From an uncultured Bacilli bacterium (lineage in GTDB: Bacteria; Bacillota_I; Bacilli_A; RF39; UBA660): a stretch of DNA of 64,000 bases. The stretch spans positions 4,169 through 68,168 of the forward strand of contig CANQIE010000001.1 of the NCBI GenBank assembly GCA_947623935.1, given 5' to 3'. The notes under the pieces are model-generated. The model searched no databases. It saw only the letters and a program-made list of their open reading frames with translations, and was not told the DNA's origin. Each line of letters opens with the position of its first letter. Position 1 is the first letter of the stretch. The translations under genes were made by a program, and so were the position numbers. Shown piece by piece: positions 54,134 to 55,378 of the stretch.

Positions 54134-55378
54134 ATGGATATGGAGAAAGAAATTGTCGATTTATTAGTGGATGATATTATCCCAAACCGCTTTCAACCTC
54201 GTGAAGTTTTTGATGAAAAAGCTTTACAAGAATTAGCCGCATCCATAAAAGAACATGGCGTTATTCAACCGATTATTGTTCGTAAAATCAACGATAAGTA
54301 CGAGATTATTGCAGGGGAGCGAAGATATAAAGCTTCCATCATGGCAGGTCTTAATAAGATTCCCGCAATCATACGTAATTTAGATGATAAAGAAAGTTCT
54401 AAAGTAGCTTTACTTGAAAACTTACAGAGAAAAGATTTAAGTGCGATTGAAGAAGCAAGAACCTATCAAAAAATTCTAGACTTAGATAACATGACGCAAG
54501 AAGAATTAGGTAAAACAATGGGTAAGAGTCAAGCGGCCGTTGCTAATAAATTACGTTTACTTGCTTTACCGGATGAAGTTCAAGAAGCTTTATTAAATAA
54601 TAAAATTTCTGAACGCCATGCAAGAAGTTTATTAAATGTAAGTGATAAAGAAAAGCAAATTGAATTATTAAATAAAATTATTGAGAATAAAATGACCGTT
54701 CGTGATTTAGAAAACGAAATTAAAGCACTTAATGGAGATCATCATGAACCAACGCTCATTATTGAAGAACCTCCTCAGGCCAAAGAATCAAATATTTTCT
54801 CTTCTCTTTCAAATATGAATCCTGAACCAATTAAAGAAAATAATTCGGATCTGTTAGTAACATCAAATGTACAAAATGATACATCTTCCAACTTCCGATT
54901 TATTCCTACCTTTGATGAAGAAGAAACTAAAGCTGACCCAGAAAAAGAAAATTCATCCGCTAATTTTGATTTCTTGGCTAATACAACTATTCAATCAAGT
55001 GAAAATGATTCTACTGAAGGAGAAACTACTTCTAGTGTTACTCCGCCACTACCAAAAAAGGATGATATCGAAAGTCTAGAAGAAGAACCTAAAAATCCTG
55101 AACCTTATCAACCGTTTACCAATACAGCAAACTTAATTAACGAATTTCACATGAAAAATGAAAGTAAAGATACGGAACCACTTTCATCATCTATTCAAAC
55201 ACCTATCTCATTTGAAGTAGAAACACCAGTAAATGAAATTCCAAATTTAAGAACTGCTATCAATACGATTCGTGATTTAGCTAAAAAGTTAGAAGATAAC
55301 GGATTTGTGGTTAATCTAGATGAAATGGATTTTGAAAACAAATATCAAATTAATATCAGTATTGATAAAAATAAATAA
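54134..55378 (+). CDS. noc: Noc-like ParB-family protein with long low-complexity C-terminal extension
   Basis: ParB N-domain [8 protein letters not shown], HTH with Q/K/R at specificity positions ([14 protein letters not shown]...ERHAR) versus R/M/S in the adjacent Spo0J; 414 aa versus about 283 for Noc. Confidence 0.7.
   Translation: [414 protein letters not shown]

Follow-up and report, generated by a model that had tools for sequence, protein, structure and literature searches.

The Noc proteins of Bacillus subtilis (YyaA) and Geobacillus thermoleovorans (structures 7OL9 and 7NFU; family model TIGR04285) are encoded after rsmG/gidB and before soj-spo0J. Bacillus Noc carries an N-terminal extension of 26 residues, made up of the membrane-targeting helix (10 aa), helix alpha2 and a loop. 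The N-terminal amphipathic helix was found to be necessary for Noc function in B. subtilis and was predicted in all homologues examined (Adams 2015), and deletion of the 10 N-terminal residues abolished both membrane binding and function (PMC4331003, PMC8429893). The truncated NocNdelta10 retained CTP binding and the closing of the N-domain gate in B. subtilis Noc (PMC8429893), and neither of the engineered truncations NocNdelta10 and NocNdelta26 bound liposomes or complemented the noc minCD double mutant (PMC4331003, PMC8429893). CTP binding and spreading need R89 and N121 of B. subtilis Noc (PMC8429893). Four specificity positions, 173, 179, 184 and 201, were defined in Jalal 2020 (PMC7383237); the NBS is read by Q173 and R201, and DNA is still bound when only one of positions 179 and 184 is Lys (PMC7383237).

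The window, i.e., the whole stretch of DNA analyzed here, comprised 64,000 nt of an uncultured Bacilli bacterium (RF39; UBA660) and corresponded to positions 4,169-68,168 of the forward strand of contig CANQIE010000001.1 (assembly GCA_947623935.1). It contained a noc-like gene at 54134-55378 on the forward strand (the strand also of soj, spo0J and the protein domains and motifs placed below), encoding a protein of 414 aa with the stop codon at 55376-55378, as read from the ORF listing and the sequence. The gene was separated from rsmG by a 68-nt spacer and was followed by soj (55495-56283) and spo0J (56261-57157), the latter coding for a canonical ParB paralog whose N-terminus has the motif ALGRGLEELF and which includes a ParB_C domain. 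A promoter-like TTGTAA-17-TATAAT sequence (54060-54088) and a GAGG ribosome-binding site (54122-54125, 8 nt before the ATG) were located in the spacer on the forward strand. Both are consensus matches only and the former was not statistically distinctive, the DNA of the window being AT-rich.

The same rsmG-noc-soj-spo0J-DUF951 gene order was observed in about 45 related loci. Among the solved structures the best matches were the Noc entries 7NG0, 7NFU and 7OL9, with 213.7 and 193.8 bits for Noc vs 173.9 bits for Spo0J. In the NJ tree, the clade and the B. subtilis and G. thermoleovorans Noc proteins were split from the Spo0J proteins of the clade and of B. subtilis in 200/200 bootstraps, with mirrored topologies. 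An independent duplication with convergent acquisition of the Q/K/R residues was ruled out by this split and by the mirrored topologies. On synteny and tree, the gene is the noc ortholog of a gut lineage of Bacilli that is uncultured and low in GC. The first-pass annotation of this DNA had called the protein Noc-like, which was right as to its Noc features but too modest in view of the synteny and the tree.

The encoded protein was 48-54% identical to the Bacillus and Geobacillus Noc proteins over the N-domain and the HTH, and shared with them the GERR/ENLQR CTP motifs, Q/K/R at positions 173/179/201, a Noc-type C-terminal domain and an identical 14-bp NBS sequence in the genome. Its likeness to chromosomal ParB/Spo0J (6SDK) extended to the fold, the domain order and 52% identity over 200 aa to the Spo0J of the window. 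It differed from Spo0J in grouping with Noc in the tree, in having Q/K/R instead of R/x/G-type residues and in the lack of both the LG(R/K)GL motif and a ParB_C match. In the 16 residues that precede PNRFQPR, the ParA-binding motif (L/F/I)G(K/R)G(L/F/I), as defined in PMC12704722, did not occur.

The first-pass annotation had proposed a ParB N-domain and an HTH, and both were recovered with high significance as the N-terminal CTP-binding domain at residues 6-98 (54149-54427; Pfam ParB_N, E=2e-35) and the DNA-binding domain at residues 100-199 (54431-54730; Pfam HTH_ParB, E=3e-34). The GERR motif (G61-R64) was equivalent in the alignment to G86-R89 of B. subtilis Noc. In the ENLQR motif (E95-R99), which straddles the Pfam boundary and extends one residue beyond the domain range, N96 was equivalent to N121. 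Both motifs were invariant among 60 family members. The HTH was modelled by AlphaFold with pLDDT >90; the AF2 model of the N-domain was poor (pLDDT 34-62). The short C-terminal folded module that had been proposed was recovered in the last 42 or so residues as a Noc-type dimerisation domain (residues 373-414, 55250-55375), predicted confidently as a helix and two strands with pLDDT 92-95. This domain was conserved within the family, and when residues 363-414 were searched alone the sole match was to positions 212-255 of TIGR04285 (E=1.6e-5). No Pfam ParB_C match was found in the protein.

The recognition segment (G130-R164, 54521-54625) carried Q133, K139, A144 and R161, which the alignment placed at positions 173, 179, 184 and 201, respectively. 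The Q, K and R residues read earlier from the sequence were therefore Noc-type, and the parS-type R, M and S reported for the neighbouring Spo0J agreed with the R-M-T-S found in its HTH (GKSRSHITNMLGLLTLPEEVKNMLLEDKISMSHAR). The fourth specificity residue was Ala, whereas canonical Noc has Lys. The parS-reading R173 and G201 were absent, with Q133 and R161 in their places. The QK[S/N/T/A]R signature was characteristic of the clade and occurred in about 270 relatives; across the clade position 184 was occupied by S, N, T, A or Q and never by Lys, which is almost invariant there in canonical Noc. Without Lys at position 184, the protein may bind with another affinity or differ in which exact site it prefers. 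By elimination, QKAR would be one of three variants that the main text of PMC7383237 names neither as non-functional nor as hybrid or promiscuous.

The perfect NBS sites announced by the first-pass annotation were confirmed at two places in the window. One copy of the palindrome ATTTCCCGGGAAAT was located in the mnmE-mnmG spacer (51457-51470) and the other in the spacer between gyrA and the SRP RNA gene (38433-38446), 12 bp from a parS-like site. A further NBS with one mismatch, ATTTCCTGGGAAAT (38513-38526), had a second parS-like site at a distance of 12 bp. At two or fewer mismatches, the window thus contained three NBS vs 0.39 expected, a number reached in 0/100 shuffles. Related loci, 631 kb in total, had five perfect NBS vs about zero expected and none in shuffled controls, and the majority of these loci had no NBS within 4 kb. 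The site in the mnmE-mnmG spacer was kept in four close relatives (L001, L002, L003 and L024). Its conservation across the whole family was rejected, as it was present only in these four of the 55 testable loci.

One difference between this protein and Bacillus Noc is at the N-terminus, where it has no counterpart of the 26-residue extension. Its residue 4 was matched in the alignment to B. subtilis Noc residue 27, so that about 23 N-terminal residues are missing, and its residue 6 aligned with chain residue 3 of 7NG0, the engineered NocNdelta26deltaCTD; the natural protein and the engineered NocNdelta26 share their starting point. [quoted passage not shown] Upstream of 54134, an in-frame TAA was found at 54041-54043 with no ATG, GTG or TTG in frame between the two, which excludes a longer N-terminal coding sequence. 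No MTS-like peptide was detected in any frame of the window. An upstream start or a frameshifted anchor was ruled out by these observations. Neither of the two findings named beforehand as contrary to the first reading, parS-type specificity residues or an upstream in-frame start supplying the helix, was obtained. The short N-terminus was a property of the whole family, with 9-31 and usually 14-20 residues before PNRFQPR in 120/120 closest proteins and 150/150 cluster representatives. A search for an anchor relocated to the linker or the C-terminus was negative: a hydrophobic-moment scan revealed no cationic amphipathic 11-mer in the linker, and when 292 family proteins were scanned by regex for MTS-like motifs, the matches were chance-like only.

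The second difference concerned the segment joining the DNA-binding and C-terminal domains. In Bacillus Noc this linker is about 20 aa long, vs 173 aa in the protein studied here (residues 200-372, 54731-55249). It was rich in Pro, Ser, Thr, Asn and Glu, with 35 D/E vs 10 K/R (net charge -25), 18 Pro and 33% S/T/N, and it was disordered in the AF2 model, with pLDDT mostly below 50. The disorder and amphipathic-helix predictions suggested as a check in the first-pass annotation thus gave a disordered linker with no cationic amphipathic window. The disordered insertion of about 180 aa described there was correct in its approximate size and disorder; it is an expanded linker between the DNA-binding and C-terminal domains, clade-wide and variable in length, and not a peculiarity of this gene. 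Across the family the linker varied from about 50 to 550 aa, and most of the linkers were strongly acidic, with a median net charge of about -20 across clusters.

Sharing of short motifs was scored in 106 homologous linkers against each linker's own shuffled control. The motif at residues 253-264 (54890-54925) was common to up to 26/106 linkers above this control, NFDFLANT at residues 277-284 (54962-54985) to up to 18/106 and the motif at residues 322-339 (55097-55150) to 14-17/106. In a set of 262 linkers, the pattern [FYH][RKH][FY][IVL]P was found in 29 vs 0.1 expected, and the PYQPF and LLNEF patterns in 16 each vs 0.2 and 1.0 expected, respectively. The I/V-P-x-F core of the 253-264 motif presumably resembles the conserved C-terminal peptide of FtsZ. 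Each motif occurred in 16-62 of the 262 proteins and was confined to sub-clades; hence no single partner-binding motif explains the whole family. The tenfold range of linker length could alternatively mean weak constraint.

The anchor-less, long-linker form was detected in at least 260 relatives, all from MAGs of uncultured gut Bacilli or 'Tenericutes', in a sample built of the 120 closest proteins and 150 representatives of 50%-identity clusters. No description of a Noc without the MTS or with a long linker was found in the literature. The accepted Noc mechanism is built on the N-terminal amphipathic helix, and this clade, frequent in gut metagenomes of animals and humans, keeps the rest under strong constraint, namely the CTP switch, the NBS-specific HTH, the dimerisation domain and NBS sites. 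Unlike the engineered truncations, the truncated form is here wild type and conserved in a large clade, where it is combined with a long acidic linker, and the clade may offer a natural means of telling which Noc activities need the membrane.

Taken together, the protein is best described as an NBS-loading CTP clamp that lacks its own membrane anchor and has its output through the disordered linker, a reading to which a probability of roughly 55% can be given; judged from its sequence, it probably does its job in another way than Bacillus Noc. By analogy with the Bacillus model, the dimer would nucleate on ATTTCCCGGGAAAT sites, bind CTP and close the N-domain gate, and the clamp would then slide out to give NBS-centred nucleoprotein complexes, around which the linkers would form a bulky charged brush. 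The sub-clade motifs of the linker would most likely dock a partner, which might be a division protein or a membrane protein. As there is neither an N-terminal helix nor a cationic amphipathic segment elsewhere, the Bacillus mechanism of pulling DNA to the membrane would not be available to it, and membrane contact may be made through a partner or via an element missed by the sequence rules. The suggestion of the first-pass annotation that the protein tethers DNA in a different way or plays a non-membrane role agrees with all of the evidence. This points to disordered linkers with short motifs as another way in which ParB-family clamps may produce their output. For the docking of a partner, a functional analogy is offered by KorB of plasmid RK2, a ParB-family sliding clamp that acts via its bound partner KorA and not via ParA or the membrane (PMC11790492). 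It differs in having no specific sequence relationship to the protein beyond the ParB fold, and the Pfam KorB match was sub-threshold (20.7 vs 22.3 bits).

What such a clamp would do in the cell can be stated only tentatively. It is possible, although doubtful, that nucleoid occlusion has been re-wired, with the clamp off the membrane and the linker motifs capturing a division or membrane protein, or that a membrane-independent Noc function has been preserved. If re-wiring took place, a motif such as that at residues 253-264 could compete for the membrane anchors of FtsZ, and occlusion would depend on proteins and not on lipids. Under both readings, Noc would not work universally by tethering to the membrane.

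A non-division role, in which the protein acts on the chromosome only, in origin-region organisation or replication initiation, and the linker is a mere spacer, appears rather unlikely, yet several observations fit it. All three NBS of the window are origin-proximal (dnaA at 46232-47608) and two are interleaved with the parS-like sites within 38405-38554, a placement seen, however, over 64 kb of the genome only. The Noc of Staphylococcus aureus is reported to control replication initiation (PMC5540599). Moreover, in about 35 related loci the noc-like gene was kept with no soj/spo0J adjoining it. In these loci the search for a conserved downstream partner gene yielded only a convergent class-A-PBP-like gene that does not form an operon with it. 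The conserved linker motifs, on the other hand, point beyond a passive spacer.

Direct binding to the membrane through a cryptic element, such as the helix at residues 331-341 or the C-terminal domain, would preserve the canonical mechanism with a relocated anchor and is considered improbable. The sole helix predicted in the linker is indeed located at residues 331-341, at the conserved LINEF motif (pLDDT about 68), and a heterologous amphipathic helix can substitute for the Noc N-terminus in B. subtilis (PMC4331003), so the identity of the anchor is flexible. However, the linker contributed no window to the top 40 by hydrophobic moment, the helix lies in an acidic/neutral context of a segment with net charge -25, whereas known anchors are cationic, and the motif of the LINEF region occurred in only 16/262 family members.

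There is very little to recommend the view that the gene is a decaying or neutral remnant that has been drifting since the loss of the anchor, with the linker growing under relaxed selection. The extreme variability of the linker in length and sequence would fit such a view, as would the putative place of the clade among lineages that have been described as having reduced genomes and evolving fast (PMC10868615). Against it, about 100 columns of the N-domain, the HTH and the C-terminal domain were invariant across 60 diverse members, full-length ORFs were retained in at least 150 clusters at 50% identity, and the CTP and NBS residues were intact. An artefact or mis-called start of a canonical Noc, or a second parS-binding ParB, for which nothing but the generic NCBI label speaks, is already refuted by the upstream in-frame stop with no start codon after it, the same N-terminus in about 270 relatives, the identical full protein on six independent public contigs, the Q-K-x-R rather than R-x-x-G signature and an N-terminus without the LG(R/K)GL motif that the neighbouring Spo0J has.

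The native protein reached 298.8 bits with TIGR04285, below the curated cutoff of 315, and the score rose to 310.9 when the linker was deleted, which is still under 315; the insertion alone was thus rejected as the cause of the sub-threshold score. The cluster members were represented solely by metagenomic records with generic names. These proteins form an annotation gap, falling just under the NCBIfam Noc cutoff and carrying the generic label 'ParB/RepB/Spo0J family partition protein'.

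The noc-like ORF (54134..55378, + strand, in the ORF listing) encodes a 414-aa protein and starts with an ATG preceded at 8 nt by the ribosome-binding site GAGG. An in-frame TAA at 54041–54043 closes the reading frame upstream and the spacer from this codon to 54134 contained no ATG, GTG or TTG. A promoter-like TTGTAA-17-TATAAT sequence (a consensus match only) was found in the 68-nt rsmG-noc spacer. Directly 3' of the stop codon, the hairpin AGATTC-TTGC-GAATC followed by a T run (55379–55405) looks from its sequence like a weak intrinsic terminator; with fewer than three G-C pairs, it was not called in the terminator scan. 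Together with the promoter-like site, this hairpin suggests that the noc-like gene is its own transcription unit.

The gene lies in the oriC region (dnaA, dnaN, recF, gyrB, gyrA), which also carries rnpA, yidC, jag, mnmE, mnmG, rsmG, noc, soj and spo0J. The order mnmE-mnmG-rsmG-noc-soj-spo0J-DUF951 is the classical one and was found again in about 45 related loci. All genome matches were uncultured gut MAGs with labels including Bacilli, Tenericutes, Erysipelotrichaceae, Mycoplasma sp. and Clostridium sp. CAG:609, records which presumably belong to RF39-like orders. The closest relative (81% identity) came from assembly GCA_947630415.1. Most RF39 species are predicted to retain a peptidoglycan wall (PMC10868615).

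Pfam placed ParB_N at residues 6–98 and HTH_ParB at residues 100–199, in line with the ParB N-domain and HTH that the first-pass annotation had claimed for the protein encoded after rsmG, and the protein strings quoted there for this protein and for the canonical paralog, the window Spo0J, were correct. The best matches among solved structures were Noc proteins: Geobacillus thermoleovorans Noc (7NG0, 213.7 bits; 7NFU, 213.3 bits) and B. subtilis Noc (7OL9, 193.8 bits), with 173.9 bits for B. subtilis Spo0J (6SDK). Over the N-domain and HTH, the protein was 54% identical to Geobacillus Noc, 48% to B. subtilis Noc and 45% to B. subtilis Spo0J, and the window Spo0J showed 53% identity to B. subtilis Spo0J and 42–43% to the two Nocs. 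The final ~42 residues were predicted by AlphaFold as a confident helix and two strands and, taken alone, matched only the Noc model TIGR04285 (positions 212–255), in agreement with the short C-terminal folded module proposed earlier. The whole protein scored 298.8 bits with this model against a cutoff of 315 (window Spo0J, 230.8 bits); after removal of the linker the match ran end to end at 310.9 bits, just below the cutoff. In a neighbour-joining tree of 12 Noc-like proteins from the clade, the 12 Spo0J encoded next to them and three reference sequences, all Noc split from all Spo0J in 200/200 bootstraps and the two halves had mirrored topologies, which indicates one ancient duplication and rules out convergence as the origin of the Noc-like signature. 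The protein is the Noc ortholog.

The specificity positions 173/179/184/201, as defined by Jalal et al. 2020 (PMC7383237), are Q-K-K-R in canonical Noc and R-x-x-G in ParB; the bases specific to NBS are recognised through Q173 and R201, and one permissive Lys, at 179 or 184, is enough. The window Spo0J has R-M-T-S. The NBS-type residues noticed in the first pass held at 173, 179 and 201 (Q, K and R in the alignment), but position 184 is Ala instead of the canonical Lys, giving Q-K-A-R. All family proteins examined had Q-K-x-R, residue 184 being S, N, T or A and never Lys. The CTP motifs GERR (G61–R64) and ENLQR (E95–R99) are intact and map in the alignment to R89 and N121 of B. subtilis Noc, whose mutation abolishes CTP binding, hydrolysis and spreading (Jalal et al. 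2021, PMC8429893).

Perfect copies of ATTTCCCGGGAAAT, the NBS palindrome of B. subtilis, lie at 38433–38446 and 51457–51470, which bears out the perfect sites mentioned before, and a copy with one mismatch lies at 38513–38526. These three matches (≤2 mismatches) compare with 0.39 expected, and three were reached in 0/100 shuffles. The related loci (631 kb) held five perfect and two one-mismatch sites, with zero perfect sites in their shuffled controls; four of the five perfect sites lay in the mnmE-mnmG spacer, as does the site at 51457, and in more distant relatives NBS at this spacer was not conserved. Between the SRP RNA gene (38271–38369) and the gyrA stop (38566), a mirror-arranged cluster at 38405–38554 consists of the parS-like TGTTTCACGTGAAACT, 12 bp, the perfect NBS, 66 bp, the one-mismatch NBS, 12 bp and the same parS-like sequence. 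Predicted Spo0J and Noc-like loading sites would interleave here within 150 bp close to oriC.

The lack of an N-terminal amphipathic helix was confirmed, as the upstream TAA fixes the start and the alignment begins with residue 4 at B. subtilis Noc residue 27. Residue 6 aligns with residue 3 of NocNdelta26deltaCTD, an engineered construct, so the natural protein begins where this truncation begins. An MD[KR]EVV-type or similar N-terminus was present in 120/120 closest proteins, and 14–20 residues only precede PNRFQPR in 141/150 representatives of 50%-identity clusters, whereas B. subtilis Noc has 39 residues ahead of this position. Proteins from 80 genome loci had the same short N-terminus once over-long first-start calls were discounted. 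Such a helix was predicted in every Noc homologue examined by Adams et al. 2015 (PMC4331003). The anchor and K184 define canonical Noc and both are absent here; with the TIGR04285 score just missed, the protein is classed as a Noc ortholog from an anchor-less, long-linker subfamily. Literature searches led to the papers on canonical Noc and to a ParB-CTPase fold survey from 2025, none of which describes a Noc ortholog that lacks the anchor or has a long disordered linker; relatives carry the generic NCBI label ParB/RepB/Spo0J.

The disordered low-complexity segment of about 180 aa announced earlier corresponds to residues 200–372, with AlphaFold pLDDT mostly <50 (sole exception, helix 331–341), 35 D/E and 10 K/R (net charge -25), 18 Pro and 33% S/T/N. 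Linkers across the family ranged from ~50 aa (P0262, a relative whose whole length is 279 aa) to 550 aa, with medians of ~200 aa and a net charge of about -20. Three islands of the query linker had counterparts in homologous linkers that exceeded the control obtained by shuffling the linker concerned: residues 253–264 (up to 26/106 linkers), NFDFLANT at 277–284 (up to 18/106) and 322–339 (14–17/106). Simple patterns for these islands and for the pair D[IL]Nx[IL]K ... N[LI]xxLL[RKQ] were found in 13–62 of 262 linkers (shuffled expectation ≤1.0). Every motif was limited to one sub-clade and none was universal. The linker is acidic and disordered and carries sub-clade motifs. Its F-I-P-T-F, we presume, resembles the FtsZ C-terminal peptide, a lead only.

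The protein combines an intact N-domain of the CTP-binding type with an HTH of NBS type and a dimerisation domain of Noc type; NBS are present in the genome, and there is no intrinsic anchor. After the Bacillus model, the dimer would nucleate at NBS, bind CTP, close and slide, but by itself would be unable to pull DNA to the membrane; its output would reside in the linker, acting as a bulky polyanionic brush and, in the query sub-clade, docking a partner through the motifs. This whole reading is given a probability of about 0.55. NocNdelta10, which is non-functional (Adams et al. 2015, PMC4331003), keeps CTP binding and N-domain gate closure and is unable to bind liposomes or bring DNA to them (Jalal et al. 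2021, PMC8429893). A role on the chromosome only, with the linker as a mere spacer, is an unlikely but serious competitor. Cryptic direct membrane contact is quite improbable: a scan of 292 family proteins and of all frames of the window found no MTS-like peptide, and the 40 segments of the protein with the highest hydrophobic moment all fell outside the linker. Decay of the gene, with its missing anchor set beside intact CTP motifs, is very improbable. An artefact or a second parS-binding ParB can be practically dismissed, the exact protein being present on six independent public contigs, and so no assembly artefact, and carrying Q and R at 173 and 201.

The paralogs share 95 nt at 83% identity (noc-like 54193–54287, spo0J 56428–56522) with a 29-nt perfect run, and 19 aa encoded in this stretch are identical. 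Apart from the window, only its closest relative, L081, had this 19-aa run, which suggests gene conversion over a short tract of the two paralogs; identical runs in the other 38 relatives were 5–10 aa, mostly 9. In the window Spo0J (56261–57157, ISMSHAR) the residue corresponding to ParB G201 is Ser, and S, A or T stood there in 9/37 related Spo0J proteins. G201 is described as absolutely conserved in extant ParB, and S or T at 201 as typical of dual parS/NBS-binding variants (Jalal 2020, PMC7383237). About 35 of the 80 related loci (in L047–L080; e.g., L048 and L075) kept mnmG-rsmG-noc-like with soj/spo0J absent within 4 kb downstream, and in 16 of the 25 such loci examined the next gene is convergent and encodes ~650 aa with class-A-PBP-like motifs. 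P0181, a metagenomic cluster representative of 221 aa, joins a Spo0J-type N-terminus (RRALGRGLEELF) to a Noc-type Q-K-T-R HTH at 79% identity to the query; it may have arisen by chimeric assembly or by recombination between the two paralogs.
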